From IMG/VR virus record IMGVR_UViG_3300048503_000086: a stretch of 64,000 nt of DNA; one strand, written 5' to 3'. The stretch comes from a virus. Taxonomy: Duplodnaviria; Heunggongvirae; Uroviricota; Caudoviricetes. Under the pieces are notes generated by a model that worked only from the letters and a program-made list of their open reading frames with translations, had not been told where the DNA came from and searched no databases. Both the position numbers and the translations under genes were made by a program. Below, piece by piece: positions 1,063-39,792 of this stretch (the stretch's first letter is position 1; every line of letters begins with the position of its first letter).

Positions 1063-1599
1063 TCAGATTCTCGGGTTCACGTCCAGCACCTTCCCGAAAC
1101 GAGTGAAAGATGCCCTGAAGGAGGGCGCTCTTCGTCCCCAGTACACGAAGCAACAGGACATGGGTGCTCCCTTCTCGACCACCTTGCCAGCCAGCAGGAA
1201 CTTCAGCCGGGGCACCCGCAAGAAGCAAATACTCCTTGCTCTTAGGAACACGTTGTCCTGCCAATGGCGCGTGTTGGTTGCCACGGGGATGAGGGCGATG
1301 ATTTCCGACTCATGTTGCTCGTGGGCATTGCTGCACCTCAGCAGCCATTCTTTGATGCTGGTCCCGTTCGTATTCCTGCCGTAGGGCGGGTTGACGTAGA
1401 TCGTGGGGAAATCCCAGGTCTCTCGCAACCCGTTGTGTTTCGGCAGCTTGTACTCCACTTTCGCTCCGACGAGAGCGTAGTCATTGGAGCACGGGTCAAG
1501 AGCAATCCAGCCACCGAAGAAATCCCGGATGACCTGGACATACTCCGCGGGCGTATTCCAATCCTTTGTTAGTGAGGTGACGTGTCTTCCGGCGGTCAT
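1063..1599 (-). CDS. Phage-type N6-adenine DNA methyltransferase
   Basis: IYVNPPYG (NPPY catalytic motif IV); about 178 aa, a typical size for phage Dam-like methyltransferases. Confidence 0.8.
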   Translation of the reverse strand: MTAGRHVTSLTKDWNTPAEYVQVIRDFFGGWIALDPCSNDYALVGAKVEYKLPKHNGLRETWDFPTIYVNPPYGRNTNGTSIKEWLLRCSNAHEQHESEIIALIPVATNTRHWQDNVFLRARSICFLRVPRLKFLLAGKVVEKGAPMSCCFVYWGRRAPSFRASFTRFGKVLDVNPRI

Positions 1600-1639
1600 G
1601 CGGTGTTGCCGCCGATCTTATGAATTGCTTTCATTGCCT

Positions 1640-2533
1640 TCACAGCGCCTTTCCCGCGCGGCGGACGCCGGTTCGGATAAGACGGACTACCATTTCCGCG
1701 TCCTCTACGGCGGTGTGGGCGACTTTGCCCTTGATCCCGGCCCGTTCCATACAGGTCTTCGAGTCGGGCAGCCTTTCGTCCGTGCCGGGCAGCCAGTAGA
1801 AAAGGGTCGGGTCGAGGACGCGGTGGTTCAGCTTGACCGTCTGCTTGAAACCGGGCAGTCTGTCGAGAAACTGCTTGTCGAAGCTGGCAAAGTTCTTGCC
1901 CGCAGGCGTCAAGCTAGTCTTGCCATCCCAGCCCTGCGCCCGCAGCCAGGAGCAAAAGCTCTCGGCAACCTCGCCCGGCGACAGGACGGAGTTGTCGCGT
2001 GGCCCGGACAAACGTTTCAAGATTTTCGCGTTGAGGGCCAGGGCATAGGGCTCGCCGGTGTAGACGGGATGGGCGATGTAGCGGTGGAAGATCGGCAGGG
2101 TATCAAGCATACCGCCATTGTCATAGATGGCCCCGATCTCAAGAATCTGGCAGGTCTCGGGGTCAAGGCCAGTCGTCTCCAGGTCGATCGAGACATAGGG
2201 CATCTTGATCTTGGAGGGCAGTTCCTTGAGGCCCTTGCCGGCGTGGCCGTTCCAATGGCACTGGCAACACTGGAAGATTGCTTCGCTTTCTTCCCGCTGT
2301 GTGAGCACGGCATGGCATACGGGACAGTACATGATGGCCTCGACGACGATGGTGTTATGAGCTGCGAGCACGTCGCGCACCCAGCCTTCGTTCTCGCTGT
2401 GAGTAGCCCCGCAGGCACACGGGCCCACCAGCATGTCGCACGGCGTACTGCCGTTGAAGCGTCTGAAGGTCCAGTCGGCGGGCCAAGGCACCATGCCGCT
2501 GCGCAGATACTTTCGCAGGACTCGTGGGTTCAC
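1640..2533 (-). CDS. DnaQ-like (DEDDh) 3'-5' exonuclease with N-terminal zinc ribbon
   Basis: Exo I motif YVSIDLETTGLDPE; Exo III motif HTAVEDAEMV. N-terminal CxxC...CxxC pairs. GTG start with GAGAGG ribosome-binding site. Confidence 0.8.
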   Translation of the reverse strand: MNPRVLRKYLRSGMVPWPADWTFRRFNGSTPCDMLVGPCACGATHSENEGWVRDVLAAHNTIVVEAIMYCPVCHAVLTQREESEAIFQCCQCHWNGHAGKGLKELPSKIKMPYVSIDLETTGLDPETCQILEIGAIYDNGGMLDTLPIFHRYIAHPVYTGEPYALALNAKILKRLSGPRDNSVLSPGEVAESFCSWLRAQGWDGKTSLTPAGKNFASFDKQFLDRLPGFKQTVKLNHRVLDPTLFYWLPGTDERLPDSKTCMERAGIKGKVAHTAVEDAEMVVRLIRTGVRRAGKAL

Positions 2534-2922: not shown

Positions 2923-3266
2923 TCCGTTTTCTCCTCGGACTCGTCCAGAGGACCGACCTCGGGGTGCGCGACCCCGAAAATCCTCAGTAGGCTTTCCAGG
3001 CACGAGGCGACGGCCCCTCGAACCTCTTGCATCTCGTGTCGCTCGACGTTGCCGTGTTCGCAGGCCAATTCCACGAGGAGTTCCTTGCGGCAAATGTCCC
3101 GGTACAAGTCGAGTGCCTGCATGACGCTGGTGGCCAGTTCGCCGGTGTGCGGCGGCTTCGTCAGGGCCTCGCACTGGCCGCCCCACCAGCCGCACGCCAG
3201 ACACAAACGGTCTGGCTCGGGCGTCACCTGGAGCGGTTTGCCGCACTTGGGACAGAATTCGCTCAT
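2919..3266 (-). CDS. Zinc-ribbon protein
   Basis: MSEFCPKCGK...CLACGWWGG. Overlaps the downstream gene by 4 nt (ATGA). Confidence 0.5.
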   Translation of the reverse strand: MSEFCPKCGKPLQVTPEPDRLCLACGWWGGQCEALTKPPHTGELATSVMQALDLYRDICRKELLVELACEHGNVERHEMQEVRGAVASCLESLLRIFGVAHPEVGPLDESEEKTE

Positions 3267-3275
3267 GGCGATCTC

Positions 3276-3656
3276 CTACTGGACCGGCCCCATGCCGGGC
3301 CCGACGTTGCGGACCAGGTTCACGTCCTGGATGCCCTTGAAGGTCAGGTTGAACTCGCGGACCGCGCGCTTGAACTCGGGGTCCCCGAAGCGCTGGCGAA
3401 TCTGTGCCAGGGCCAGTTTCACCTTGTCCTTGGAGGCTTTGGCCGCCGCACTCCGGCCGCCCATCGTGCCAGCATCGGTCTTGATCTGCTCCCGCAGGGC
3501 GGCGAGCTGCGCCTTGCCGCGGTCCTTCTGGTTTCCGACCAGCTTGAGTTGGGCGCGGGCCTCGCGCTGACCGCCGCTGGAGGCCGCCGCCTTGAGGGGC
3601 ATTACCACGTCGAGTTTGCGGGCTCGGGCAGGGTTGCTCGCTTTCGCTTTGACCAT
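3276..3656 (-). CDS. Lys/Ala-rich basic protein (possible DNA-binding)
   Basis: 126 aa. AGGAGCC ribosome-binding site upstream of the ATG. Confidence 0.5.
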   Translation of the reverse strand: MVKAKASNPARARKLDVVMPLKAAASSGGQREARAQLKLVGNQKDRGKAQLAALREQIKTDAGTMGGRSAAAKASKDKVKLALAQIRQRFGDPEFKRAVREFNLTFKGIQDVNLVRNVGPGMGPVQ

Positions 3657-3707
3657 TTTCTGGCTCCTGGTTTAGTGGTTTGCTTGTTTCCGGGCGACGG
3701 CATGAAA

Positions 3708-4100
3708 TCACACGCCTAGCTCCCGGAGGGCTTGGACTTCCTCTGCCGTGAGCTTCTTGATCGCTTGCCGCCGGGCTTTGACGAGCCCTTCGTACTCTTT
3801 CGCTTCTTGGCGGAACCGGGCGATTGCCTCTTGGTAGGCTTTGCGGCAGGCTTCCTTCGTCCCTTGGCCGGAGCCTCCGCAGGCGGCGCAGGGTACGGTG
3901 CGTCGGTTTCGGTTGCCTTCGACCGGGTACGGCGGGTCTTGCGGGTCGTAGATCCATCCTCGGCCGGAACAAGCGAGGCAGGGCCACTTGTCGGCAGGGT
4001 GCAGTCCGAGCCAGTGCTGCTTGGTGGCAAACTCTTGCAGACTTCGGTAGGGTCGGACGGGCTTGACATGCTTCCATCCGGTGCTGAAGGTGCAGGGCAT
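3708..4100 (-). CDS. Cys-rich zinc-ribbon protein with helical C-terminus
   Basis: CLACSGRG...CAACGGSG. High third-position GC. GAGGAAG ribosome-binding site 7 nt upstream of the ATG. Confidence 0.5.
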   Translation of the reverse strand: MPCTFSTGWKHVKPVRPYRSLQEFATKQHWLGLHPADKWPCLACSGRGWIYDPQDPPYPVEGNRNRRTVPCAACGGSGQGTKEACRKAYQEAIARFRQEAKEYEGLVKARRQAIKKLTAEEVQALRELGV

Positions 4101-4528
4101 TCGTCTTCCTCTTCGTAGCGCGGCGTGACGTATCGTGTGAGAAGCTCAAAGGTCTTGCGGCTGAGCTTCTTGCGAGCCCACACGGGAATCCCCGTGGGCA
4201 GCTTGCCGAAGATTTCCACCAGGCCCCGCACGCCCGTCGCTTCGCAGGCTTTGGTCCAGAGCCGCTTGTGACGTTCACAGGATTCCCGGGCCTTCGCCAA
4301 GACCTTGAAGAGGCGATGGCCGGAGTCCGTGAAGTCCCACATCGGGAAGTTCTCGCCCTCCTTGCCGCCGAAGTTCGGGACGATGATGCGGACGGTCGCC
4401 TGGTAGCGGCCAGGCATCCGCACGCCGTCGTACTCTCTGCGCCAGACGATTCGGTATCCGTCTTCGGAGAGCCAGGTCCGCCGGACCTTTCCCTTCTGGC
4501 CGCGTTTCTTCTTACGCGTGAACTCCAT
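3716..4528 (-). CDS. Hypothetical protein. The globular N-terminal ~145 aa looks real; the C-terminal half overlaps 3708-4100 in another frame and looks off-frame.
   Basis: MEFTRKKKRGQKGKVRRTWLSEDGYRIVWRREYDG... with GGGGAG ribosome-binding site. The S/P/K/R-rich tail begins exactly where ORF 3708-4100 starts. Possibly one gene split by a frameshift. Confidence 0.35.
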   Translation of the reverse strand: MEFTRKKKRGQKGKVRRTWLSEDGYRIVWRREYDGVRMPGRYQATVRIIVPNFGGKEGENFPMWDFTDSGHRLFKVLAKARESCERHKRLWTKACEATGVRGLVEIFGKLPTGIPVWARKKLSRKTFELLTRYVTPRYEEEDECPAPSAPDGSMSSPSDPTEVCKSLPPSSTGSDCTLPTSGPASLVPAEDGSTTRKTRRTRSKATETDAPYPAPPAEAPAKGRRKPAAKPTKRQSPGSAKKRKSTKGSSKPGGKRSRSSRQRKSKPSGS

Positions 4529-5709: not shown

Positions 5710-6984
5710 TCATGGCCCCTCCCAGATGGCCCGATGGACGTAGCCGCTGCGGATCAGCCCGTGTTCCGCCGCGATCTTTTCGCAGTAGCCCCTGTCGATC
5801 TCGAAAAGGGAGCAGGGCAGGCCGAGACGTTTACACACTCTCAGCGTTGTCCCCGTACCGGCGAACGGATCGACCACGACGCCCCCGGGCGGCGTCGTCA
5901 GCTTCAGGCACCGTTCGACCAACCCCTCGTTCAGTTGGGTCGGGTGCCACGGGCGGCGCTGCTTGCTGTTGCCCGTCACCCGGGTGAAATTGAAGACATC
6001 GCTTAGCGACAAGTCACCAGTGACGTGCTGCCATGTCTTCCCGTCCTTGATGCTGCGAATGTTGGCCTCCGTGACGCCGTATTGTTTGGCAAGATCGACC
6101 AGGCGGTCGGCTGATTGGTAGATATGGATTACATTTTCGGTTGTCAGTTTCGTCAGTCCATTGGCTTCGCCGGTTGGATGCTGTCCTCGTCGCTTGATTT
6201 CCTTGTCACGGTTGTTGTCTCCATCTGATCCAATGAATAGATGGTTGGGATTACAGCAGCCAGGGTTGTCACAGGTGTGCAATATAAGCTGGCCGATGGG
6301 GTCAACTCCGTGTGTCAGTCGCCACATCAGACGTGTGGCGACGTATAGCTGTTCACCGATGCGAAAGCGGCCGTAACCCGCACGCTTACCGGCAGTCCAC
6401 TCCCAGCAGTTTTCCTCATTGCATCGGTCTATTTTCGCCAGGAACCGTTCAACATCCTGCGCGGTCCAATTCGGCAGCGGCAGTGTATCACGCTCACCGT
6501 AAGCAAAGTGAGCCACATCGCCTGGCACCCGCCCGCGGGGATCAGCACGCTTGTCGCCGTTCTCCTGCCGCCAACTTGGCACGCGGATGGCGTCCGGGTA
6601 GAGCGGGGCGTCGGACCAGCGAAGTCGCAAGAGCGGCCGATGGTTGTTGCCCAGGTCGTGGTGGCTATGCTGACCGAAAGTGAACGTCTGGACGCAGGGC
6701 TTGGCCTCGATCGCGCTGCCGTGCTGGCCCTCGATCTCGGTCACGATGCGGCCTACTTGGAAGGTCCATTTCGCGTTGTAGGAGAGCCATACCGTCTTTG
6801 CCCTCGTGATGAAGCAGTTGAGCCAGCCGCGGAGCAAGTCGATGTAATCGCTCTCGGTGCGACGATCCCTGTAGGTGTCGTAGCCCAGGCCGATGTTGTC
6901 CGGCGGATCGGCGAACAAGGTGTCCACCCGATCTGCCCCGGGCATCCACTCCATGCAGTCAGCATTGACAAGCGAGTATTTCAT
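5710..6984 (-). CDS. Beta-class DNA methyltransferase (N4/N6 family) with an inserted HNH endonuclease domain
   Basis: FADPPDNIG (motif IV) at the N-terminus and VVDPFAGTGTT (motif I) at the C-terminus. Between them: CWEWTAGKRAGYGRF...HTCDNPGCCNPNHLFIGSDGDN (HNH). The true start is the internal ATG at 6984 (MKYSLVNADCMEWM), which overlaps the upstream stop (ATGA). Confidence 0.8.
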   Translation of the reverse strand: MKYSLVNADCMEWMPGADRVDTLFADPPDNIGLGYDTYRDRRTESDYIDLLRGWLNCFITRAKTVWLSYNAKWTFQVGRIVTEIEGQHGSAIEAKPCVQTFTFGQHSHHDLGNNHRPLLRLRWSDAPLYPDAIRVPSWRQENGDKRADPRGRVPGDVAHFAYGERDTLPLPNWTAQDVERFLAKIDRCNEENCWEWTAGKRAGYGRFRIGEQLYVATRLMWRLTHGVDPIGQLILHTCDNPGCCNPNHLFIGSDGDNNRDKEIKRRGQHPTGEANGLTKLTTENVIHIYQSADRLVDLAKQYGVTEANIRSIKDGKTWQHVTGDLSLSDVFNFTRVTGNSKQRRPWHPTQLNEGLVERCLKLTTPPGGVVVDPFAGTGTTLRVCKRLGLPCSLFEIDRGYCEKIAAEHGLIRSGYVHRAIWEGP

Positions 6985-7661
6985 GTTGGGTCCAGTGCGG
7001 TCTCCGGCAGGAAGTAGTGGGAGCCGATGCCCTTGACGTTGAAGATCAGGATCTCTGCGTGAAACTCCACACCGGGGAACGTGTCCAGCGGGAGCGACAC
7101 GATGCTGGTCAGCTTGGCACCGCAATCCCGCAGCCATCGCCAGCGGGTGCTCTTGCGCCGTTGATTGAGGCGCATCCCCATCGGTGCGAACATGACCGTT
7201 GGCGTCCCGTACCCGAACAGCGTGAACGTGTGCTCCAGGAAGACCTCCGGGTACAGCCTCCGGCCGCTGGCCCCGTTGAAGGGCGGATTGCAGAGTACGA
7301 GATCCGGGCGCACCATGTCCGTTTGATCTTCATACCGGCCGTGACAGAACTCATTGCAGTAGGCGCTTCCTCGGTCGTCAATGTCGCAGCCGTAGATGTA
7401 GTGGCCGCCGTTGACCCAAGGGGCGGTCAATCGGCCGGTGCCAATGGCCGGGTCCAGGACAAGATGGAACGAATCCCGGCAGCGACCGCCCCCGGCACAC
7501 GGCCCGCGAGCGGCTCGCAAGGGCCGGGCATTGCACAGCGTTGTGTAAAGGAACTGTGCAACGCTGCTCGGCGTGTAGATGTCGCTCCGCTTCGGGTTGG
7601 CGGTGTAGTCGTTTCGTTTGACGGTCAGCGGGCTCACCATTACTTTGTCTCTTCGGACCAT
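6981..7661 (-). CDS. Gamma-class N6-adenine DNA methyltransferase
   Basis: LDPAIGTGRLT (motif I) precedes LVLCNPPFNGASG (motif IV). Start ATG at 7661, or at 7640 (TAATG coupling). Confidence 0.75.
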   Translation of the reverse strand: MVRRDKVMVSPLTVKRNDYTANPKRSDIYTPSSVAQFLYTTLCNARPLRAARGPCAGGGRCRDSFHLVLDPAIGTGRLTAPWVNGGHYIYGCDIDDRGSAYCNEFCHGRYEDQTDMVRPDLVLCNPPFNGASGRRLYPEVFLEHTFTLFGYGTPTVMFAPMGMRLNQRRKSTRWRWLRDCGAKLTSIVSLPLDTFPGVEFHAEILIFNVKGIGSHYFLPETALDPT

Positions 7662-10644: not shown

Positions 10645-10958
10645 GGCTTGTTGGGAGGTTTGGATGCGATCCCGGAGTCGGGCCTGGACTCGGGTTCAGC
10701 CGGCGGCTTGACCTTGGGCTCGACCGGCTTGATCTCGGGCTCGATTGGCTCGATCCTGGGCTCGGCCGGCGGCAGCGGCGCTGGCTCCGTGTCAGGCGGC
10801 AGCGGGAGCCGCAGTACCTCCCAGTTACCCGTGGTCGAAGGTGGCTGTGGAGCCGGTCGAATGGCCGGCTTGCCCATGACAATGGCCGCTGCGATCAAGG
10901 CCGACATCGCCATGAGGCCGAGCAGGATGCTGAGGGGGTTGTCGTTGTTCCGGTTCAT
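10641..10958 (-). CDS. Membrane-anchored protein with a Pro/Glu-rich repeat tail
   Basis: Internal ATG at 10958: MNRNNDNPLSILLGLMAMSALIAAAIV then EPRIEPIEPEIKPVEPKVKPPAEPE. The sequence upstream of this ATG is RG-rich off-frame translation. Confidence 0.5.
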   Translation of the reverse strand: MNRNNDNPLSILLGLMAMSALIAAAIVMGKPAIRPAPQPPSTTGNWEVLRLPLPPDTEPAPLPPAEPRIEPIEPEIKPVEPKVKPPAEPESRPDSGIASKPPNKP

Positions 10959-11602
10959 GTTGGCATTCCAGGTGGTGAGAAGATTCCCGTGAAGGCGGTG
11001 GCGTCCGACCAGAACTCTTTGAGGTGCGGAAGCCCGACTTTCAGGATGCAGCAGCCGCGGAGCCAGTTGAGGAGACCCTCGGGCGTGAGAACGTGGGGGT
11101 GGCAGTCGTCCGCCGGGATGTAGAGCCACTCGAAGATGCGCAGGACGCCGTGGGGCGAGACGCAGGCGACAGCATTGGCTACGACCTTGGCCGGGTCCTG
11201 GACGTGCTGGAGCACGTTGTACAGCCACACCTCGTCGAACAGGGCGTTGCCGAGGTGTTGGCTGCCCAGGGCCTCGCCCGGGGCCTGGATAAACTCGATC
11301 TTGTAGTTGGCGTATCGCCTGTGAACTGAAGGCGGCCATTCGCAGGGGTCCGCCACAACCAACCGCTTCGCACCAATGCAACGGAGCGTCATGCTGATAG
11401 GCCCTCCGCCTACGTCCAGGACGGTCTTGCCCGGCATATACAGCTCACCATTGAGTGTGCCGTAGTCCTCGAACAGTCTCATTTCGCGGCCGTACATTTC
11501 GCCTTTGCAGAACTCGCCCCAGGCCGTCATTCCCTGGCAAGTTCCCCAGTATTGCTTCTCGTGTTTCTGGGCTTCTTGCCAGCGGGTATTGGATTCAGCC
11601 AT
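10955..11602 (-). CDS. Class I SAM-dependent methyltransferase (substrate unknown)
   Basis: VLDVGGGPISMT (SAM-binding motif I). GGAGAA ribosome-binding site. Confidence 0.7.
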   Translation of the reverse strand: MAESNTRWQEAQKHEKQYWGTCQGMTAWGEFCKGEMYGREMRLFEDYGTLNGELYMPGKTVLDVGGGPISMTLRCIGAKRLVVADPCEWPPSVHRRYANYKIEFIQAPGEALGSQHLGNALFDEVWLYNVLQHVQDPAKVVANAVACVSPHGVLRIFEWLYIPADDCHPHVLTPEGLLNWLRGCCILKVGLPHLKEFWSDATAFTGIFSPPGMPT

Positions 11603-12072
11603 GCGAATTCTCCATGATGTTCGAGTGCTAACTTGTTGTAGGCTTTCGTAGCCTCGACAATGGTGTGGAAGCGACGCGACTTATAACGCCTCCCCCTTGC
11701 CATAAGTTCTGCCCGATACCGGCCTGTGAATGCCTCAAAGTAGACACCTTTTGGCCCGGCTTTATTGTTGCGGTTTGGTCCACGGTTGGATTGGTTCTCG
11801 AATCCGTCTGCCAAGCGCAGGTTAGATCGTCGGTCGTCTAGGCCATTACCGTCCCTATGGTCATAATGGCCTGGCACCATGCCTGCTCGACGCGCGACCT
11901 CTTGATGGATGAAGACAGTCCTCTTGTGGCCGGTCGAATAGTCTGTTCGGCCGCCATAAAACAGGCCCTTATCTCGTGAGCGCGCAGCGTGCCACCTCCA
12001 CCGCATCAGGTACTCGTAGTCCTGATCGTCTACCAGGGCCTCCTTGCCTTGTGTGAGCGGGATACGCTTCAT
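11527..12072 (-). CDS. HNH homing endonuclease with AP2 DNA-binding domain
   Basis: IPLTQGKEALVDDQDYEYL...HRDGNGLDDRRSNLRL, then GVYFEAFTGRYRAEL (AP2-like). Confidence 0.8.
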   Translation of the reverse strand: MKRIPLTQGKEALVDDQDYEYLMRWRWHAARSRDKGLFYGGRTDYSTGHKRTVFIHQEVARRAGMVPGHYDHRDGNGLDDRRSNLRLADGFENQSNRGPNRNNKAGPKGVYFEAFTGRYRAELMARGRRYKSRRFHTIVEATKAYNKLALEHHGEFAWLNPIPAGKKPRNTRSNTGELARE

Positions 12073-12539: not shown

Positions 12540-12757
12540 GGTCGTCGAGCCTTTCCAAAGGGGATTTGATGCCACAGTCGTTCGTGGAAGTAGAACAGGA
12601 TCAGCTTCACGATGAAGCAGATGAGGGTGAACACGGCACAGCCGCCCACGTTGCCAAACATGGCGAAAGCCAAGGCGAAGCAGACAAGGTTGCTGAAAGT
12701 TTCCCAAGTCAGTGCCTTGGCGACGGTACGCTTTGGTGCGCTAGGGTCGGGCTTCAT
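12536..12757 (-). CDS. Small membrane protein (2 TM helices)
   Basis: MKPDPSAPKRTVAKALTWETFSNLVCFALAFAMFGNVGGCAVFTLICFIV. GAGGGAAG ribosome-binding site. Confidence 0.5.
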   Translation of the reverse strand: MKPDPSAPKRTVAKALTWETFSNLVCFALAFAMFGNVGGCAVFTLICFIVKLILFYFHERLWHQIPFGKARRP

Positions 12758-13374
12758 TTCTTCCCTCGCTTCACGGCTCGCTTGGTAGCCAGGGGCTTCT
12801 TCCGGCCGATGTACCGGCTTGCGGACTCGACGCAAGGTTTTCCCATCCAGTTGAAGAAGTACCAGCGGTTGAGCCGGTCGATCACCGGGTCGTGGTCGAT
12901 GTGCCGCAGGTAGGTCTTCACTTCGTCCCACGTCGAGAAGATCATCTCGAAGGGGAGCGTGCCGAAGAGCCAATCCGGGCAGTTCTCGATGCCCTGAGCC
13001 ACGCGAACGAGGATGGGCTTCTTTTCCCGGTTGGCCAGGAACAACTCTTCGTAGGTGCCCGTTGCGTGAACTTGCAGGTCGATGTTCACGATCAGGAAGT
13101 CGGCCACGTCCACCATCCGCAGATCGACCGGGCGAATCTGCTTCATCTGGTTGCGGACGAACTCGAAGTCGCCGGATCGCTTCGCCTTGTGGCGCAGTTC
13201 GCGGTTTTCCAGGTCTTCGACGCCGATGTCGATGGGCTTTCGGCACGGGTCGAGCCAGAGGATGTTCAGGTCGCTCAACGAGTCGATCAGGTCTTGACGC
13301 CAGCCGATGCCGCCGTCAATCACGCGGTCCATTGCCCCGCACAGGTAGCCCCGGTTCAGGGCCAGCCGGTTCAT
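12754..13374 (-). CDS. Nucleoside 2-deoxyribosyltransferase-like protein
   Basis: MNRLALNRGYLCGAMD...HATGTYEELFLA resembles the deoxyribosyltransferase fold (P-loop-like N-terminus, catalytic Glu). Internal ATG at 13374. Confidence 0.45.
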   Translation of the reverse strand: MNRLALNRGYLCGAMDRVIDGGIGWRQDLIDSLSDLNILWLDPCRKPIDIGVEDLENRELRHKAKRSGDFEFVRNQMKQIRPVDLRMVDVADFLIVNIDLQVHATGTYEELFLANREKKPILVRVAQGIENCPDWLFGTLPFEMIFSTWDEVKTYLRHIDHDPVIDRLNRWYFFNWMGKPCVESASRYIGRKKPLATKRAVKRGKK

Positions 13375-13400
13375 GGCGGGCTTTCTCACGGCCTGTTTCT

Positions 13401-14096
13401 TCACGGGAGCAATTCCTGGAACTTGGACGAGCCGATGCGAGTGCAACCCATGTCCAGGTAACGGACTGCATCAGCGTGAGTGTTGATCCCGCCGCTGGCC
13501 TTGACTCCGCACCGATATTCGCCCCCTACGGCGTCGAGCATGATCTGCACCACGTCTGGGGTTGCTCCGTGCGGGGCGAAGCCGGTCGAGGTCTTGATGT
13601 AATCCACGCCGCAATCAGCGCACAGGCGGGAGGCGTCCCTGATCTGGGTCGGCGTGTAATAGCAAGTCTCCAAAATGGCTTTGACGATCGCCCCTCGCGG
13701 GCGGGCCTCGGCGACGATGCGGGTCAACTCCGTTCTTATTGGGCCCGGGTCGCCATCCAGGAGCCGGCCGTAGTTGACCACTACGTCGATCTCCTTCGCC
13801 CCGGAACCCATTGCCTCCACGGCCTCCACCGTCTTGGTAAACGGAGTGGTGTTGCCGTGCGGGAAACCGACAACAGCACACACTCGGTCCGTATAAAGAG
13901 TTGCAAAAGAGACAAAACTGGTTGGGACGCAGACGGATTTTATTCCGTAGCGGCTCACCATCTCGCAGGCTGCGCGCACCTCGGCCGCCGTTGCGGTGGG
14001 CTTCAACACTGCCAGGTCCAGGGAATCGGCAATGCGCTTTACAGCGGTTGAGCGGTCGTCGGGTGTGGCTTCAGGCTTGATCTGACTGTTGTTCAT
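13401..14096 (-). CDS. deoC: Deoxyribose-phosphate aldolase
   Basis: Motifs GFPHG, EIDVVVNY, VKAILETC, VKASGGI. Aligns along its full length to class I DeoC enzymes of about 220 aa. Confidence 0.85.
   Translation of the reverse strand: MNNSQIKPEATPDDRSTAVKRIADSLDLAVLKPTATAAEVRAACEMVSRYGIKSVCVPTSFVSFATLYTDRVCAVVGFPHGNTTPFTKTVEAVEAMGSGAKEIDVVVNYGRLLDGDPGPIRTELTRIVAEARPRGAIVKAILETCYYTPTQIRDASRLCADCGVDYIKTSTGFAPHGATPDVVQIMLDAVGGEYRCGVKASGGINTHADAVRYLDMGCTRIGSSKFQELLP
13896..13926 (-). promoter_or_regulatory. Copy 3 of the conserved motif, embedded in-frame inside deoC
   Basis: aAAGAGTTGCaaaagagacaaaaCTGGTTggg. Encodes ...PTSFVSFATLYT... in a variable DeoC loop. Confidence 0.45.
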
Positions 14097-14165: not shown

Positions 14166-14924
14166 TCAGAAGTTGGTGAAGAGAATCTCGACCTTGTTGC
14201 TGCACTCGCCCCGGCGCTCGCAGGCTCCCCGACGGGGTGTGTCCCGCGCGATCCGGTTCCAATGTGGGTAGCAACACGCAGCCGCTAGCGACTCGGACAC
14301 GATCACCTTGGCACTGGCCGAGTTCAGCAATTCGACCATTGCCGGATAGTCAACGCGGTAGCGGTACTCGTCCTCGTGGCCCACGTAGGGTGGATCGACG
14401 TAGATCAGGGCCTCGGAGTCGTTGTAGACCCGCTGGATTGCGGCCAGTGCGTCCTCGTGCAGCAGCGCGACCCCGCGCATCCGGTTGGCGGCCGGGAGCA
14501 CCCGTTGGAACCAATCGGCCCAGACTTCCTGCTTCGGCTTGTGCGGGGCCGGGCACTTGTCCAGCGACCATGTGGAAGAATTGCCATTGCCGCAGTAGAA
14601 CTGTGCGCCCTGCGCCATCAGCAGCACCGCCTGGTCGATGTCGCCCACTGGCCGCTGCCGCCAGTTGGCGGCCGTATAGGGCGTGGCCCACAACAGCGCC
14701 GCCAGTTGCTCGGGTTGCGATTTGATGGCCCGCCACATGCCCATGACCACCTCGTCCAGATCGTTAACGATCTCAACGAATGACCGCGGCTTGGCCAACA
14801 GCACGGCGGCCGAGGCGCAGCACGGCTCCATGTAAACCCGGTGCTGCGGGAAGTGGGAGACGATCCACTTGGCGATGGACGCCTTGCCGCCATATTGGCG
14901 ATAGGTGATCTTGGGCGTGGCCAT
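14166..14924 (-). CDS. dam: Dam-family (alpha-class) DNA adenine methyltransferase
   Basis: N-terminal YGGK motif and IYVDPPYVG (DPPY). Confidence 0.85.
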   Translation of the reverse strand: MATPKITYRQYGGKASIAKWIVSHFPQHRVYMEPCCASAAVLLAKPRSFVEIVNDLDEVVMGMWRAIKSQPEQLAALLWATPYTAANWRQRPVGDIDQAVLLMAQGAQFYCGNGNSSTWSLDKCPAPHKPKQEVWADWFQRVLPAANRMRGVALLHEDALAAIQRVYNDSEALIYVDPPYVGHEDEYRYRVDYPAMVELLNSASAKVIVSESLAAACCYPHWNRIARDTPRRGACERRGECSNKVEILFTNF

Positions 14925-15307
14925 CAGTCTTCGTCGCCCTCTTCCTTGGCAACGATGTCTAATGCCTCCCCCATCAGGTACTCGGCCGCCAGGGCTCCGG
15001 CCTTCTCGACGAGGACGGCGGCCCAGTGGACGATCAAAGGCTGGTCGTCGTTCAGCTTGGCCTCCTCCAAAGTGACCAGGGCTTCCAGGACCAACTTGCC
15101 TTTCTTGGTGAGATGGCCGTCATCCAGGGCGTGGGCGTCGTTTTCCTCTTCCTGGAGGGTCAGGATATTCTCCAGGGTGGCCTCAAGCTGGGCGTCCTGT
15201 GACTCCGTGGCAGCGGCCCCGCAGCCGTTACGTTGCTTCATTGCCTCCAAGAGTCCCTGGGCCTTCGTCCAAAGCTGGATCACTTCGCGTAAGGTCGCTT
15301 TATTCAT
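14924..15307 (-). CDS. Acidic hypothetical protein
   Basis: Internal ATG at 15307: MNKATLREVIQLWTKAQ... Its stop and the Dam start overlap (TGATG). Confidence 0.5.
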   Translation of the reverse strand: MNKATLREVIQLWTKAQGLLEAMKQRNGCGAAATESQDAQLEATLENILTLQEEENDAHALDDGHLTKKGKLVLEALVTLEEAKLNDDQPLIVHWAAVLVEKAGALAAEYLMGEALDIVAKEEGDED

Positions 15308-15893
15308 GGCTCGCCTCAAAGGTGAAAGTGGAGTCGATCTGGTTTCCCCATTGATCCCAGCCTGGCCGCGGCCTGCGGGCAAACAGTTCCAGGTAAGGCC
15401 CGGGGCTCTGCTCTTCGATCAGGTCGTAGAAGAAATCGGGCTTGACGCTGTGCGGTGCCCGCGGCAACAAGTAGGCTGTCGGCCGGCACGGGCCCGCCAG
15501 ACGCAGGCTTCCACGCACTGCGAACAGAAGATGCTCTGTCGCACTGCGGTAGTAGTAGCCGGTCTTCATCGACGGGCTGCCGTCCGCCTTCACCTTCACC
15601 CAGGTCAGCACCGTCTTGGGAACAAAGCCCCAGGCCCCTACAATCTCATGTGCTTCAACCAGGAACGAGTTGGTGGTCCACAGGTACAGGTGGGCGGCAT
15701 TTACTGCCGCCTCTCGCACCGGCAGGGCTTCGATCTCGCGGATGGACATGCTGCCGTAGCGGCCGGCAGAACTCACCGAGCCGGTCACTTTGTTCCAACT
15801 ATTCGGCCGATGGCCTGGAGCAGCCCGTGGACCGTCCACGTTGTCGTAGGGCCACGGCGGGTCGGCGTAGATGGTGCTATACATGGTGGCCAT
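15300..15893 (-). CDS. MT-A70 family N6-adenine methyltransferase
   Basis: IYADPPWPY (DPPW motif). Internal ATG about 15893. Confidence 0.8.
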   Translation of the reverse strand: MATMYSTIYADPPWPYDNVDGPRAAPGHRPNSWNKVTGSVSSAGRYGSMSIREIEALPVREAAVNAAHLYLWTTNSFLVEAHEIVGAWGFVPKTVLTWVKVKADGSPSMKTGYYYRSATEHLLFAVRGSLRLAGPCRPTAYLLPRAPHSVKPDFFYDLIEEQSPGPYLELFARRPRPGWDQWGNQIDSTFTFEASHE

Positions 15894-15894
15894 G

Positions 15895-16125
15895 TCAAAG
15901 TTGCATCGCGCTCTTGTAGTAGCAGGCAGGGCACAGGACAACCGGCGTGTCATCGTCAGCGATGTTGGCGTCAAAGGGATCGGCAATCGGGATGGCATCG
16001 ACGCCAATTAGCAGGGCTCCGCAGTCCCGGCAGCAGCCCTCCAGGTCGCGGAGGTCGATCCAAACGCAGCGGAAGGCCGCCGGATCGGCTTCGTACCCCA
16101 GGTAGGCCAGCTCGCCCTTTTCCAC
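15895..16125 (-). CDS. Small zinc-ribbon protein (paralog A)
   Basis: GTG start preceded by AGGAGG. GCCRDCG...CPAC. Paralogous to 16127-16375. Confidence 0.5.
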   Translation of the reverse strand: MEKGELAYLGYEADPAAFRCVWIDLRDLEGCCRDCGALLIGVDAIPIADPFDANIADDDTPVVLCPACYYKSAMQL

Positions 16126-16126
16126 G

Positions 16127-16797: not shown

Positions 16798-16938
16798 AGC
16801 GGCTTGCGAATTCTCACTGCCTTGTAGCTGTCGTACAGAACGCCCCCTTCAGCGAGCAGTGCTGTAACGCTCGGGCATTTTCCTTGCCGTAGGCCAGTAA
16901 CACCGATGGGCCGCCGGCGTTGCCCTTGCCTGTCTTCG

Positions 16939-17921: not shown

Positions 17922-18044
17922 AGCAAGTAAGCAAGGAAGGCAATGACAGACCCGCAGGCTGCCAGAATCGAGACGGTGATGACTCAAGACGTGAAGGCAT
18001 TGACGGCTGACCACCGATGCCCACGGGCTTGCTGGCAATTGCCC

Positions 18045-18072: not shown

Positions 18073-18094
18073 GAACCAGTGAAAAGGAGACGCT

Positions 18095-21472: not shown

Positions 21473-21493
21473 AGGTGATCTTGAGCGTTGCGA

Positions 21494-33302: not shown

Positions 33303-33830
33303 CTAGACAATCAGGGCCATCTGTTCGCCGTGCCCTCTTCGGAAATGCACGGCTCCACAGGCCCATCCAAATCCGAAGCCCACAGCGCGACCCGTCCACG
33401 GTGCGTAAACCTCGACAATCCCGCCATAGCGCTTAACCATCAACAACCGTTTCCGGCTGCCGAAGACCTTGGCGATCGGCAAGAGGTAGACCACGTTGGC
33501 CGCCAACGCGAAACTGTGCTCAAGCCACGCATTGAGGATCGAGTAAGGTGGGTTGCCGATAATCCAGTCCACGGGCTGCTTCCAATCGAAGAAGTCTCGG
33601 CCCTCTCTGATCTCGCACCACAGACACTCCGGCACATGGCGGCTAAACGCACGATCGCCAGCGCAGGGGTCCAGCACCTTTCCTGTTGGCCGATAGCGAC
33701 GAACGATCGCCGCGGCGACATGATCGGGCGTAAAGACCACATCTCGATCCTTGAAGTCCTTCGAGTTGTCAGACCGCAGGTGCGTCATCGGCAAGAACTC
33801 AAGGTCGTATAGTGAACAGGCATTGGGCAC
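33303..33830 (-). CDS. Small gamma-class N6-adenine DNA methyltransferase
   Basis: VLDPCAGDRAF (motif I) precedes WIIGNPPY (NPPY). Confidence 0.75.
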   Translation of the reverse strand: MPNACSLYDLEFLPMTHLRSDNSKDFKDRDVVFTPDHVAAAIVRRYRPTGKVLDPCAGDRAFSRHVPECLWCEIREGRDFFDWKQPVDWIIGNPPYSILNAWLEHSFALAANVVYLLPIAKVFGSRKRLLMVKRYGGIVEVYAPWTGRAVGFGFGWACGAVHFRRGHGEQMALIV

Positions 33831-33842: not shown

Positions 33843-35161
33843 TTAGCCACGCAGGAGTCCAACGTCCCGGCCGCCGTCGATCAGGTAGCGCTTGGGACCA
33901 TTCTTCTCGGCTGCGTGCCTCAGCTTGCAGTTGAGACGCCACGTCACACCATGCTTCGGATTAACGCCGTGGAGCCATTGGGCCGGCTCGCGGTAGCCAG
34001 AAAACGAGTTGTAGGAATAGCTATCGGTGCCGACCCAGGCACCGTTTACCATCATTTCGCCATCAATGTCCGAGAGGGTTGCGGCGGCATGATGGTGGCC
34101 AATGCAGTAGTACCGAATGCGCTGGCCGCCGGCCGCCGCACCCAGGGCGACGAGGCCCTTTTGCCGGCGGACCAACCCGTACCAAGGAATTCCGAGGTTC
34201 CCCCGCACATCGTCACCGTGCGCGACATTGAAGCCCACGCCGCCGATATTGATGTTGGCCGACCAGGCATCAGGAATCTGGAAGCTGACGTTCTCCAAGC
34301 CGCGGCAATGCAACCGCGCGATCTCGGCGATTAGGTAATCGAAGTTGTCGTGGGCACCGCCGTAGTCCTTCTTGACTGTTCGGCGGCCGTGGTTGCCGGC
34401 CAGGTACAGGACGTTGACACTCTCGAAATGGGCCGCAAGATCGCGCAACATCAGAGCGTGCAACTGACCAATGGCCAGGCAGTTCTTGAACGTGTTGCGG
34501 TAGTAGGACCGCTGCGTGGCGTTGTGGATCTCGCCGCTGGTGAAGTCCCCATAGGCCAGCACCGTCAGCGTGGGGAACTGGAACTTGGGCACCAGGGTGT
34601 CCTGGGTCCACTCGATCACGGTGTCCACCAGCCGCTCGGCGCGGGCACAGGAGATCGGGAAGTTGTACTCCTCCAGGCCGCCCACCTCCTCCGGCCGCAC
34701 GACCTGATCGTGGTGGCCATCCGAGAGGTGCAGCACGCAGGCTTCCGTGATCTGGGCCTTGCGGCGGAAGTCCAGCGCCGGCGGCAGGGCCGTGAAGGGC
34801 TTGATCCGCTGTTCCATCTCACCCACGATGGCCTTGAACAGGCCAGCGACCTTGGCCCCGGCCTTGACCTTCTGCCGCTCGCGGTTCCGCTCGTCGGTCA
34901 GGTGAACGATCTCCGACTCCAGCTCCAGGATGCGGTTGTTCGTCGGATCATAGTCGGGCTCCGGCTTCCGCTGACCGCCGGCCTTCTTGGGACAGGGTTG
35001 CGCATCGTCGGGCCAGGGCACATCCTTGTGGAGGCGGCCGGTGGCGATGTCCGAGACCACCGAGCGGCTGACCTTGAATTGCTTGGCGATTCTTGGCTGG
35101 GTGACCCCTCGGCCACTTGTGCCTTGATGGCGGCGACTCTCTTATCGGATAACTTCGTCAT
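33843..35161 (-). CDS. Metallophosphoesterase (Mre11/SbcD-like or phosphatase) with an N-terminal HTH that is disrupted by a 1-nt frameshift in a C4 homopolymer near 35105-35108
   Basis: VLHLSDGHHD, AYGDFTSGE, LAGNHG, HGDD, GHHH. Upstream frame gives MTKLSDKRVAAIKAQVAEG, then the shifted frame gives VTQPRIAKQFKVSRSVVSDIATGR (HTH). Confidence 0.6.
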
Positions 35162-36277: not shown

Positions 36278-36590
36278 TCACACGAGAGCGGTGTCCCGCT
36301 CGACTTCAAGCAGGCTGTCGTATTCGGGGGCCAGCCGAGAAATCAGGGCCTCGTAGAGGATGTCGCCCAAGAGTTCGGCGTCAGACGATTCGCTGCCCAC
36401 CTCTACGTGAACAACCAGGCAGACGCCTTCGTCATGCTCACCGTCGTCGGGAAGCCTGAAGCTGACCGCCTCCACGCGATCCCAGGGGCGACCGTAGAAA
36501 GCTCGCTTCAGGAGCAAGTAATGACGGCGCGAGTCGGGTTGACCTTCCAGTAGCCGTGGTACAGCCGCAGGTCGTAAGTCATGCGGTTCA
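36278..36590 (-). pseudogene. Small hypothetical protein with a 1-nt frameshift near 36520
   Basis: MNRMTYDLRLYHGYWKVNPTR in one frame, then HYLLLKRAFYGRPWDRVEAV... in the next. Confidence 0.3.
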
Positions 36591-36639
36591 TGTCCGGTAC
36601 TCCTCGAACTCGCCTTCTTTCGTGGCGGCGTCGTCCCAA

Positions 36640-39600
36640 TCAACGCCTTCCATCACTTCGCCCATCGTCATCAGCTCCAGCTTCCGGTTGGCGCGGATCA
36701 CGTCGAGCACGCGGCCGTCGCTCGGCAAATGGATCAGATCGACGATGGTGCAGCCCAAGTTCATCGTCCATGCCCAATGCGATGGATGCGGTCCTCGCTC
36801 TGGTGCGGTATTCCGGCTTATAGGAGTTGGACCAGTAGACCGCCATGCGGGCCTCCACCAGCGTCAGGCTCATGCCGCCCGACTCGGGATTGGCCACGAA
36901 GGCAACCGCGATGGTTCACCTCCCTGTTGGCCCAGTAGTCCAGCGGCTCTTCCGTCACGGGCGAGTCATGGGCTGTCGTGCGGCAGGACTTGGAAGTTGC
37001 CCTGGTCGCAGCGCACCACGTCCCACTTTTCCTTCACACAGCTTGACGATGCGATCCACCGAGCCGGTGAAGCCGGCGAACACCACGATGCGGCCCGTCT
37101 CCTCGTTCTCGTCCAAGAGCATCTTCAGGCGGCGTCCTTCGGGCAGGCAACCTCGCGGGTCGTGCGGACCATCTTGGCACTTCCTTCGTGCCGCCGCACG
37201 CGGGCAGGCACCGTCTGCTTGACCAGCCGGGCCTATGACCTCTTCCGGGAGCAGATCGATGCCGGGATAGACGTGGCTCCGGGTCTTCCGGGTCCAGCCA
37301 GATCCGTCACCGTGCCATCCGTGCAATGCGTGCAGCGGGTCATGCCGTCCTGCTGCCTCGCGGTACTGGAAGCCGTCGCTCAGCTCGCGCAGGAGGTCAT
37401 GCCCGTCACGGCGTTGGGTGCCGCTTCCACAAGGGCCTCGGCCACGCGCAGTGTGCTGGCGGTCGGCTTGCAGACGATCTTGCGGTATCGCTTCTCGGGC
37501 AGGTCAGGCAGTCCTTCTTGTGCTTGATGACCACCAGCCCTTGAGCCGTTCGTAGAGGTAGGCGACCTCGTTCTTGCTGGGCGTGAACGGTGGTACTCGG
37601 GGTCGGTCAAGCCGTCCAGTTCGTGCGGCCCCTCCTCACGACGTCTCGCCGCACTGGCGCATTTCCGATTCGTCGTCCTTCCAGCCGATGCGCTTCTTGA
37701 AGGCCGGTCGTCGAATTGCTGATCGACCATGAAGGCCAGCCGCTCTTCCATCGCCCGGCGGCTGCCCTCGCGCAGGAAGCCGGGCCAGGCGATCTCGCAC
37801 TGGCTCCACCAGTCCACGGGCGTCTTGGGCGACGGCGTGCCGGACATCTCGATCACGTAGCCTGCTCCAGGCCGTACTTCTCGCGGATCATGTCCGCGAG
37901 CTTTGGCAGGCGCGGGAGCGCTGCGAGGTGTCGTTCTTGCACCGGCTCGATTCATCGCCACGAAGGCCGTGCGGGGCAAGGTCTGCGAGCCTCCCACTCG
38001 TCCATCACGCGGACCAGCCCCTCGTAGGTGAAGAACTCGACCTGGAATGCGGTCGAAGGGGAACCCCACATGCGGAACTCGCGCTTGATGTTCGGCAGGC
38101 TGGTCTTCGGGCCGCCCAGAACCAGATCGACGCCCGACTTTCTCGATCACCTCTTGGGCCGGCCAGGGTCTTGCCGGTGCCCATTTCGGCCGCCGAAATC
38201 TGGTAGTGGTAGGTCAGGCCGGCATCGGCCAGGTCCATTTGCATGTCTGCGGCATCAGCGGTCAACGGCCGGTACTCGTGCCGCACCAGCGGCCGGTCGA
38301 ACCAGGCGTAACACGTCCTCGCCGCAGAGATAACCGATCTGGAAGCGGTTGCGCTGGCAGTCGTCCACCGACCAGACCTTTGATCTTGGCGTACTCGCCC
38401 TCGTCGTCGTAGCCGTGGAAGTGCGCGCCGCGCATGGCCTTGACTTCCGCCATCAGCCCATAGCGCGTCTTCGTGCCGACTCTTGCCGTCCCAGAAATAG
38501 ATGCGGCCGTCCTTCTTCTCCAAGGCGACCGGCACGCGAATCCGCGTGCCGCTGGATGTCTGGGCCTCGACTTTCACGGATTCAAGCGACATGCAATCTG
38601 AGGCCTCGGGCGATCTCGCAGTTATGCTCGTCAACTCGACGCCGATCGAGCGGCGGCCGAGCCGCTGGGCGGCCAAGAGCGTGGTGCCGCTGCCGGCAAA
38701 CGGGTCCAGAATCACGCCGCCATCGGGGTCGAAAGCAGCGTGAGCAGAGTATTCCATCAGGGCCAGCGGCTTGACCGTGGGTGGTCGTTGCCTCGTCCCG
38801 CGCTCCTTCCGAGTCGCCTTGGCACAGTAGAAGAACCGGCTCGCTCCGCCTGTGTCGCCGTAGCTCACCTGAACGTCGCCGGCCTTGCCGAGACCGCCGT
38901 GATAGCCGTCGCCGGACTTCGTGCGGACGCAGTTGGTGCCGCTGGTGAGCGTGCCGGTCTGAGCATCCAATTGGCGGCGGCCTCTTCGTCCAAGAGCAGA
39001 TTCGCCGGCCAGCGGCCCGGACTCATGAACTGGGCCCCTTCACGGCGACCGCTTCGATGCTCGACTCAGCCAGCTGTTTGCCGTCAAGCTCGTCCCGTTC
39101 CGCGCGTTGTACTTGTAGCCGGGGTTTCGCCGATGCGGGAGGCGTCGATGTTCATGCCCGCCACGCCCCAGGTCAGGGCGTTGTGGGCAATCGTGCCGTC
39201 CAGCGGCTTCATCGCCAGGACGATTGGCTCCCAGGCCGGCTTCAGGGCCATCGCCCAGCCGGTCCACCTCGCGGCCTCGGGAGTGGCCGGGGCGGTTATC
39301 TGCGCGGCGCGAAGCCGAGCGTCCGTGCCGGGGGCATGGAGTCCGTTGCCGCCGCCGTAGCACCCGTTCCCCTTGCCCTCGTGCAAGTGATAGCCGGGAC
39401 GGTCCAGCTTGTCGCCAATGACCTCGCGCTCCGCGCCTTTCGACTTGTCGATCAGCTTGCCGATGTCGCCGCACTTGGGCATCCCCTGCCCATAGAGCCA
39501 CATCAGCGCGTCCCGAATCTCCCAGCCGGCGTCTTCGATTGCACAGTCAGCCGGTGATAGGTCCGCGTGCCGCCAAAGGCGAGCAAGAGCACCGGGCTTG

Positions 39601-39792
39601 CACACGCGGGCAATGGCCCGCCAATACTCGGGTCCGGGAACCTCGTGGTCCCAGTCCTTCTCCATGAAGCTGAGTCCGTAGGGCGGGTCCGTCACCACGA
39701 AGTCCACCGCACGCCTCGGGCAAGGCCGGCAGCACATCGCGCAGATCGCCGTCGTAGAGGGCGATGTTGCCGTCTGTGTGGTAAGGTCTCAA
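36640..39792 (-). pseudogene. Remnant of a large fusion of a beta-class DNA methyltransferase with an SNF2-family helicase (resembling the P1 anti-restriction protein DarB), broken by several frameshifts
   Basis: Pieces in different frames: MRPYHTDGNIALYDGDLRDVLPALPEA | AVDFVVTDPPYG...NIDASRI | SRFFYCAKA...HPTVKPLALMEY...ILDPFAGSGTT | AAEMGTGKT (helicase motif I) | MSGTPSPKTPVDWWSQ (SNF2 motif III region) | LLDENEETGRIVVFAGFTGSVDRIV (helicase C). Confidence 0.5.

Follow-up and report, generated by a model that had tools for sequence, protein, structure and literature searches.

An unusually large collection of amino-methyltransferase genes from five families in a probable temperate phage of Planctomycetota

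Introduction

Solitary methyltransferases directed against host restriction are known from lactococcal phages of the 936 type (PMC4190342), and of 8,848 gut phages surveyed, 34% were found to carry a methyltransferase, 72% of those only one (PMC10477858). With four methyltransferases, the Cellulophaga phage phi18:1 was singled out as notable (PMC11946311). Type II restriction-modification (R-M) systems borne by prophages have been described for the Nitratiruptor temperate phages NrS-2 and NrS-3 (PMC9723563). Here we analyse a 64,000-nucleotide stretch of tailed-phage DNA (Caudoviricetes; IMG/VR record IMGVR_UViG_3300048503_000086), referred to as the window, in which eight intact and three damaged genes of amino-methyltransferase families are located within ~39 kb. 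A limited literature search returned no published count comparable to that of the window, the surveys and single cases reaching four at most.

As for the orphan enzymes of 936-type phages, phi18:1 and the gut phages, the genes in the window include Dam/D12, beta N6_N4 and gamma types and are placed in a tailed-phage replication module, mostly without an adjacent restriction gene, and their presence varies between related phages. The window differs from phi18:1 and from most methyltransferase-bearing gut phages in the number and density of genes and in the five families to which they belong, and from all these examples in that its Planctomycetota lineage is uncultivated. In analogy to the R-M systems of NrS-2 and NrS-3, a small restriction-enzyme-like gene shows translational coupling to one of the methyltransferases in what appears to be a temperate phage, but this gene (R) is recognised from a single PADLOC model and a single instance of conserved synteny, and it resides in a 4-kb mobile block together with an HNH gene and a second methyltransferase.

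Fusions between ParB/Srx domains and methyltransferases occur in phages and prophages. The product of gene M7 (numbering as in Table 1) similarly joins a ParB-like N-terminus, detected by profiles at scores below threshold, to a methyltransferase domain, although this domain represents the small PF05869 phage type instead of the PF01555 type. The Bacillus phages SPbeta and phi3T encode a multispecific C5-cytosine enzyme with several target-recognition domains in one protein. The set in the window would likewise protect against several restriction specificities, but by means of many separate amino-methyltransferase genes, and a motif scan of the window found no C5-cytosine methyltransferase. 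A resemblance to homing-endonuclease insertions in phage genes (free-standing HNH genes of the I-HmuI type, and inteins) is seen in M2, which has been entered by an HNH/NUMOD-like module akin to a free-standing gene in the window; this insertion constitutes an in-frame domain between short repeats, with neither intein termini nor signs of an intron. The window thus holds an unusually large methylase collection, extreme yet of a known kind.

Methyltransferase repertoire

The initial annotation had listed about ten DNA methyltransferase genes of four architectural classes and regarded the repertoire as extreme. Each of the open reading frames (ORFs) that it named was found at the positions given or only a few codons away, and evidence from Pfam, PHROG, structure or context places these ORFs in amino-methyltransferase families. 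The genes comprise eight intact (M1–M5 and M7–M9) and three damaged ones (M6, M10 and a relic), and are spread over ~39 kb of phage genome, with four HNH endonuclease genes or insertions lying among them (Table 1). The number of classes has to be revised, as five Pfam families are represented, and the term extreme is justified by a load far above the single gene found in most methyltransferase-carrying gut phages (PMC10477858) and the four of phi18:1 (PMC11946311).

The repertoire probably represents a mosaic of amino-methyltransferases of five families within the replication and nucleotide-metabolism module of a planctomycete temperate phage, where most of the enzymes would be solitary and serve anti-restriction, and one would belong to an R-M pair. 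Support for the enzyme assignments comes foremost from six of the initially annotated ORFs, i.e., M1, M2, M4, M5, M7 and the 16939–17865 segment of M6, which directly exceed the curated Pfam cut-offs (28.1 bits for PF05869, 26.7 for PF01555, 22 for PF02086 and 23.9 for PF05063). PHROG methyltransferase families agree for all six, and additionally match M8 and M9 (the latter as ORF 33303–33830).

Scans of all other ORFs with PHROG profiles and with locally built family hidden Markov models (HMMs) revealed no further methyltransferase in the window besides the relic at 16823–16957. False PF05869 and MT-A70 matches caused by overlapping alternative-frame ORFs were set aside by trimming of the envelopes, and a match at 16023–16169 was discarded as contamination.

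Table 1. Methyltransferase genes in the window and associated features, in order of position.
Feature	Coordinates	Strand	Principal evidence
M1, small phage-type N6-adenine methyltransferase, NPPY, intact	1063–1599	−	PF05869 E = 3.3e-13, 50.1 bits
M2, beta-class N6/N4 methyltransferase with HNH insertion	5710–6984	−	PF01555 E = 4.9e-24, 86 bits; HNH_3 E = 1.4e-5, 25.1 bits
M3, ~219-aa gamma-type N6-adenine methyltransferase catalytic domain, DPAIGTG...NPPF	6981–7640	−	Homologues, family profile, AlphaFold model
Class I S-adenosylmethionine (SAM)-dependent methyltransferase	10955–11602	−	Methyltransf_11 E = 1.2e-6; Methyltransf_23 E = 3.2e-6
HNH (AP2-type) homing endonuclease beside the SAM methyltransferase gene	11527–12072	−	phrog_99 E = 1.2e-29
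M4, alpha-class D12 (Dam-type) N6-adenine methyltransferase, DPPY, intact	14166–14924	−	PF02086 E = 2.3e-12, 47.6 bits
M5, MT-A70 family methyltransferase, DPPW, intact	15300–15893	−	PF05063 E = 5.3e-23, 82.3 bits, profile positions 1–172 of 172
Relic of a further PF05869 methyltransferase	16823–16957	−	Locally built HMM match; comparison with L004 and L018
M6, beta-class methyltransferase, disrupted	16939–17921	−	PF01555 E = 2e-12, 48 bits, C-terminal half only (16939–17865)
M7, ParB/Srx-like N-terminal domain fused to PF05869 methyltransferase, intact	18095–19096	+	PF05869 E = 2.9e-7, 30.8 bits
R, 162-aa probable Type II restriction endonuclease	20106–20594	−	PADLOC REase_II PDLC03550 E = 1.3e-10
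M8, gamma-type N6-adenine methyltransferase, EPSCGKG...NPPF, own C-terminal domain	20591–21472	−	phrog_5172 E = 1.2e-29; phrog_799 E = 6.9e-11
HNH (AP2-type) homing endonuclease, edge of 4-kb block	21494–21970	−	phrog_99 E = 1.6e-33; PADLOC HEase match
M9, ~161-aa gamma-type methyltransferase catalytic domain, DPCAGD...NPPY, intact	33303–33788	−	phrog_799 E = 1.9e-26
SNF2-like helicase gene, broken	36603–38592	−	Weak Helicase_C and SNF2 Pfam matches; PADLOC ZorD-like SNF2 match
M10, beta-class methyltransferase, DPPY...PTVKP...FAGSGTT, broken	38609–39792	−	PF01555 E = 4.4e-14, 53.4 bits (fragment 38005–38970)
Free-standing HNH homing endonuclease, same type as M2 insertion	42704–43399	+	phrog_1872 E = 3.5e-31; phrog_59 E = 1.2e-30

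M1 and M7 are both members of PF05869, and both match phrog_111 (E = 7.3e-25 and 6.3e-21, respectively). The catalytic motif reads YVNPPYG in M1 and FLNPPFD in M7. Against the stricter NCBIfam equivalog TIGR01712, the scores of 33.9 bits for M1 (E = 2e-8) and 28.9 bits for M7 fall under the cut-off of 97. M7, the sole plus-strand gene of its block, additionally matches ParB-like PHROGs and, below cut-off, TIGR00180 parB_part (E = 8e-7), in line with the ParB–methyltransferase fusion that had been proposed for this ORF. The third member of the family is the relic directly downstream of M6 that was missed in the initial annotation. An internal deletion of ~370 nt has left the first few and the last ~35 codons of a gene for which the intact counterpart encodes 169 aa in the related contig L004 (positions 17455–17961 of that contig; related contigs are denoted by L numbers) and is present in L018 too.

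The assignments of M4 as Dam and of M5 as MT-A70 stand, both genes scoring far beyond the respective cut-offs. In M4, which matches phrog_56 across residues 12–251 (E = 1.1e-28), the catalytic motif is YVDPPYVG, and copies that are 80–94% identical are present in L004, L018 and L006. M5 contains the motif YADPPWPY and matches phrog_359 (E = 1.3e-51); in L004, the gene is frameshifted and lacks its N-terminal part. The protein encoded at 10955–11602, initially listed as a SAM-dependent methyltransferase of unknown substrate, is indeed a Methyltransf_11/23 protein, with a match to phrog_3603 (function unknown) and weak similarity to CmoB/UbiG. Because it is a generic class I SAM methyltransferase that belongs to no DNA methyltransferase family, it is left outside the DNA methyltransferase count.

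Gamma-type enzymes

None of the three gamma-type proteins M3, M8 and M9 passes a Pfam cut-off with its own sequence, and their assignment relies on motifs and other profile evidence and, for M3 and M8, on structural models. All three display motif I (xxGxG) followed by motif IV (NPPY/F), and these motifs are invariant in their families. M3, for which the stop codon overlaps the M2 start (ATGA), matches neither Pfam nor PHROG, but belongs to a well conserved family of 185 homologues of ~200 aa, 21 of 30 sampled members of which match PF02384. The family profile finds HsdM (7.7e-6) and M.TaqI at motifs I and IV, and the AlphaFold model (pLDDT 85.1) is most similar to the folds of HsdM, CamA, PacII, BseCI and TaqI. 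For M9, the score against PF02384 (18.9–19.2 bits) is just below the cut-off of 20.4, and 19 of 30 homologues match the family. The initial calls of a gamma-class enzyme at 6981–7661 and a small gamma-class enzyme at 33303–33830 are therefore upheld by the homologues' PF02384 matches, together with the family profile and AlphaFold folds for M3, and the phrog_799 match for M9.

M8 has no Pfam match, and its initial designation as a gamma-class enzyme with an NPPF motif agrees with its PHROG matches and with the PADLOC model MTase_II PDLC03255, which is matched over nearly the full length (E = 2.7e-14). The M8 family profile retrieves METTL5 first (3.9e-9) and then M.TaqI (4.9e-6), and the AlphaFold model (pLDDT 90.6) matches Erm, KsgA and METTL5, but also TaqI and HsdM. 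Matches of M8 to TALE-repeat entries in the PDB were dismissed as summed weak repeat matches.

These observations bear on the possibility that several of the enzymes, i.e., M3, M8 and M9 together with the SAM methyltransferase, act on RNA or protein, which would reduce the number of true DNA methyltransferases to about five. Such substrates would agree with METTL5 and archaeal homologues being the best sequence match of the M8 family among solved structures and with Erm/KsgA as the top fold, with the name 'predicted RNA methylase' given by JGI to several homologues, with the absence of a recognisable target-recognition domain in M3 and M9, and with the lack of an own Pfam match for M3 and M8 and the marginal score of M9. 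We nevertheless regard this as distinctly unlikely, as the best 45 structural matches of the M3 model are all DNA adenine methyltransferases, as about two thirds of the sampled M3 and M9 homologues (see above) match PF02384, and as M8, a nearly full-length match to a Type II methyltransferase model, is coupled to R.

A probable restriction-modification pair

The R start codon overlaps the M8 stop by 4 nt (ATGA). Residues 10–133 of R match positions 11–133 of the 160 positions in the PADLOC profile PDLC03550; no match to R was obtained in Pfam, NCBIfam or by sequence in the PDB, and a catalytic motif was not identified. In the distant locus L043, an M8 homologue with 39% identity has its stop overlapped by an ORF that is 30% identical to R, whereas the M8 homologues in L042 and L044 have no such partner. 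Because both genes match PADLOC models, overlap at ATGA, and recur as a pair in L043, R and M8 probably constitute a Type II R-M cassette. The suggestion that some of the methyltransferases are orphan partners of lost R-M systems therefore does not apply to M8, where a probable Type II restriction enzyme overlaps the stop codon. Among ORFs between 1 and 41.5 kb, searches with Pfam, NCBIfam and PADLOC matched no other restriction enzyme or defence model besides R and M8, the PADLOC scan covering ORFs of at least ~45 aa outside the broken cassette at 36.8–39.8 kb.

Beta-class genes M2 and M6

As annotated initially, M2 is a beta-class enzyme with an HNH insert and a DPPDN motif. The HNH/NUMOD-like module occupies 173 codons in frame (~6001–6519), with the 7-nt repeat GCGATGT on both sides. 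L029 and L030, which are 96% identical, lack it, as does L012, and the insertion appears to be recent. The module is of the same type as the free-standing HNH gene at 42704–43399. An intein or intron was considered and rejected for this insert, which is in frame and flanked by the 7-nt repeats, has no Cys/Ser...His-Asn termini, and shows no sign of an intron.

Motif IV of M2 (6880–6900) reads DPPD at the position where solved beta-class methyltransferases have DPPY in the alignment. The substitution is not restricted to the window, as DPPD(N/A) is conserved in all M2 relatives, down to 60% polymerase identity (L012, L029–L032, L034 and L035), and the M2 family is the most widely retained methyltransferase of the lineage.

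M6 had been noted as a frameshifted beta-class gene, and this is borne out by a comparison with the intact genes in L004 and L022, where the two halves form one 326-aa ORF. The break is caused by one G missing from a GGG run near 17648, and the same deletion is present in the independent assembly L001. The M6 motifs are DGPY (motif IV), HPNQKP and FGGLCT, and DGPY, which aligns to DPPY of solved enzymes, is conserved across M6 relatives. Thus, the aromatic residue of motif IV is retained in the canonical DPPY form only in M10 among the three beta-class genes; M2 (DPPD) lacks it, and M6 (DGPY) departs from the canonical motif. None of the three has an uninterrupted frame: M2 is open, but contains the HNH insertion, M6 has the 1-nt deletion, and M10 has ~9 frameshifts.

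Gene turnover among relatives

Whole methyltransferase genes have been gained, lost or replaced between relatives with ~95% DNA identity. One such difference is a 4-kb block at 17999–21977 that holds M7, a 324-aa Sigma70_r4/HTH protein, R, M8 and an AP2-type HNH gene. The block is present in L001 and L002, but L004, which is 95% identical, has 39 nt in its place (boundaries from blastn). L029 and L030 feature an extra 4.2-kb block beside DeoC with an additional PF01555 gene, and the PF05869 gene that was deleted in the window to leave the relic is kept in L004 and L018. Several methyltransferases adjoin, or are interrupted by, HNH homing endonucleases.

About nine methyltransferase loci are present in L004/L030 over the ~39 kb available, while relatives at 60–65% polymerase identity have one or two loci per 22 kb. 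The high load is thus a trait of the subclade, with the window at its upper end. With near-identical relatives that carry differing sets, HNH genes at the junctions and one R-M pair, the lineage offers a good system for studying gain and loss of methylation specificity.

This turnover raises the question of whether the methyltransferases are mainly selfish mobile cargo, i.e., R-M remnants and homing-endonuclease passengers from which the phage gains little or no protection, in which case the high count would reflect a high rate of insertion into a recombination-prone region and not selection for many specificities. The four HNH genes or insertions among the methyltransferases, the variable presence of genes between relatives of ~95% identity, the damage to 3 of 11 loci in the window and to the MT-A70 gene in L004, and the possibility that the surviving R-M pair is an addiction module would all fit such an account. 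What it explains poorly is that eight ORFs are intact, with motifs that are canonical or conserved in the family, and that genes of the M2, M4, M9 and M10 types are kept down to 60–80% identity of the family A DNA polymerase (PolA), which suggests purifying selection. We therefore consider selfish cargo an unlikely main explanation.

Proposed function

In the mosaic of mainly anti-restriction enzymes that we favour, most enzymes would act alone, and those with a (D/N)PP(Y/F/W) motif would methylate adenine at N6, or possibly cytosine at N4, at different short motifs. Methylation of phage DNA would take place after infection or induction. Because the element is most likely a prophage, the chromosome of a lysogen could also become methylated. 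DNA modified in this way would pass the restriction systems of the hosts that the phage meets. R would cut unmethylated incoming DNA and thereby protect, or 'addict', the lysogen, with M8 as the modification half of the pair. Horizontal acquisition of cassettes would maintain the high load, while deletions and frameshifts would prune it.

Self-methylation against restriction is a plausible role, suggested by the families to which the enzymes belong. Several points weigh against this interpretation. M2 and M6, which depart from the canonical motif IV, may have altered or no catalytic activity, and M2 is additionally split by the HNH domain. M3 and M9 appear as catalytic domains of 160–220 aa with no recognisable DNA-recognition domain, and M8, as judged from profile and model comparisons, seems to resemble rRNA m6A methyltransferases as much as M.TaqI. 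The assignment of R as a restriction enzyme draws on one library model and on synteny conserved in a single case, with L042 and L044 as counterexamples, and small unannotated ORFs that adjoin other methyltransferases could be undetected partners. Finally, integration of the window copy is inferred from relatives, with neither integrase nor attachment site in the 64 kb.

A role in epigenetic regulation of the lysogen or of the phage cycle (replication timing, packaging or expression), similar to that of CcrM or Dam, would be compatible with a probable prophage that carries Dam-type and CcrM-like families, and in which M2, a lineage-wide core gene, has an altered catalytic motif. Regulation would leave unexplained why many families are needed and why the sets differ in near-identical relatives, and we consider it very improbable as the general purpose of these enzymes.

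If the eight intact genes are active, the lineage would rank with the most heavily self-methylating phages described so far, and would provide a natural collection of compact amino-methyltransferases, several no longer than 160–220 aa, from a phylum for which almost no phages or R-M enzymes have been characterised.

The methyltransferase–helicase cassette

The region 36640–39792 had initially been described as a methyltransferase–helicase remnant. A beta-class methyltransferase (M10) and a helicase are both present and broken, but they are two adjacent genes. A fusion was rejected on the basis of L018 and L040, where separate ORFs encode a methyltransferase of 399–412 aa (412 aa in L040) followed by an SNF2-like helicase of 655–656 aa. 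The helicase is intact in L003/L040, L004, L018, L036 and L038. In frameshift-aware alignments with L018, M10 is identical at 258 of 406 positions (64%, ~9 frameshifts), and the helicase at 491 of 664 (74%, ~33 frameshifts). After correction of the frame, a single in-frame stop is found in the cassette.

Compared with L040, the window has 67 indels, 57 of which are frameshifting, and all are confined to 36.4–39.7 kb with identical flanks on either side. The affected stretch corresponds to a divergent allele of the cassette with its two genes. Between the window and a second assembly of this allele (L001/L039), 42 indels and 89 mismatches are counted within the stretch, and no differences in the flanks at 36.0–36.4 and 39.6–41.6 kb; over 15.2 kb, L002 shows 3 mismatches to the window and no gaps. 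The frameshifting indels divide into 34 that are common to both assemblies of the allele, 24 private to the window and 15 private to L039. No motif emerged among the private indels, 19 of 32 of which adjoin an identical base. Differences between the two allele copies show a weak codon-position bias and a transition/transversion ratio of ~0.9, and the ratio of indels to substitutions is ~1:2 at >100 times the divergence of the flanks. Such an indel ratio and divergence are not expected from ordinary pseudogene decay.

We lean towards the view that the ~57 frameshifting indels constitute an artefact of the assembly consensus and that the phage has nine intact methyltransferases, so that the word remnant would be misplaced; possible causes are a strain-variable cassette that was collapsed, or poorly polished, in long-read data. 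An artefact would account for the restriction of the indels to the divergent cassette, for the disagreement of L001/L039 with the window there and not in the compared flanks, for indel and transition/transversion ratios that look like noise, and for a helicase that retains 74% amino-acid identity after frame correction with only one in-frame stop in the cassette. L001 has scattered indels elsewhere too, and the 'contig_N' names of related sequences are typical of long-read assemblers, although the link to these is inferred. On the other hand, the 34 frameshifting indels common to two assemblies require systematic error or else common descent, such errors are absent from the remainder of the window, and no further copies of the broken haplotype were found in a 30-mer scan of metagenome contigs and viral contigs or by look-up of the exact 58-aa C-terminal fragment.

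The alternative is a real, sharply localised indel hypermutation of the 36.4–39.7 kb cassette. It appears improbable, but a locally hypermutating pseudogene has to be kept in mind because the 34 indels are shared by two near-identical prophage genomes that come from separate samples. Of all the features in the window, only this cassette anomaly could prove truly unusual. For a consensus artefact, the preferred explanation, it carries the practical warning that apparent "pseudogenes" in heavily variable cassettes of metagenome assemblies may be of this kind.

Two smaller observations were made in the vicinity. A 104-aa gene just downstream of the helicase (36508–36643), at the edge of the indel-rich stretch, has lost 1 nt at 36513 in the window, but not in L001 or L003. 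In L001, three extra 1-nt indels split an exonuclease gene (3171–4273 of that contig, corresponding to 34629–34943 of the window) that is intact in the window and in L003; this contig thus seems to hold scattered indel errors or mutations outside the cassette as well.

Host and genomic context

The G+C content of the window is ~61%, and the minus strand codes for nearly all of 1 to 42.5 kb. Replication genes are represented by PolA, an ATP-dependent ligase, a DUF5906 primase-helicase and two DnaQ-like exonucleases, and nucleotide metabolism by DeoC, NT5C and a MazG-like protein. ParB-like and sigma-like proteins are also encoded, as well as large tail proteins with Laminin_G_3 domains. The replication, nucleotide and tail genes identify the window as a portion of the genome of a tailed phage. 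Capsid and terminase genes were not recognised in it, and the genome therefore probably extends beyond the window. An integrase, an attachment site and tRNA genes were likewise not seen in the 64 kb.

Megablast of positions 1–25 kb gave no match to cultured phages, and PolA is only ~25% identical to that of any cultured phage; because of this, no usable annotated close relative is available. IMG/VR holds 25 related contigs of 10–149 kb. Other relatives (L034, L035, L036 and L038) are embedded in chromosomes or large contigs of genome bins. The PolA relative of L036 is located at 1.50 Mb of a 4.2-Mb chromosome of a Thermoguttaceae metagenome-assembled genome, the L038 copy, with a PolA that is 99% identical, lies within a 699-kb Pirellulales contig, and other PolA relatives are found inside 290–700-kb contigs of Pirellulales and Planctomycetota genome bins. 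Furthermore, the end of a 378-kb contig carries a 96%-identical relative of window positions 1–14 kb. Location inside a host chromosome is thus observed for relatives only. Because these are embedded in planctomycete chromosomes or large contigs, the element in the window is a probable prophage, and most likely a temperate phage of Planctomycetota (Pirellulales/Thermoguttaceae). Few phages have been characterised for this phylum, and the lineage appears to be temperate and is uncultivated.

A nucleotide-salvage set is distributed over 12754–14096, 23606–24217 and 46519–46977, and consists of a nucleoside 2-deoxyribosyltransferase-like protein (weak match), the DeoC aldolase, the NT5C 5'-3' deoxyribonucleotidase and the MazG-like pyrophosphohydrolase. 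No sign of a pathway for a non-canonical base was found around these genes. Upstream of a 1088-aa tail gene, several small adjacent ORFs at 49226–50758 have a common N-terminal motif, MQNV...P.IV.IEAQGR..D.V..D.QDAR, and look like tandem paralogues.

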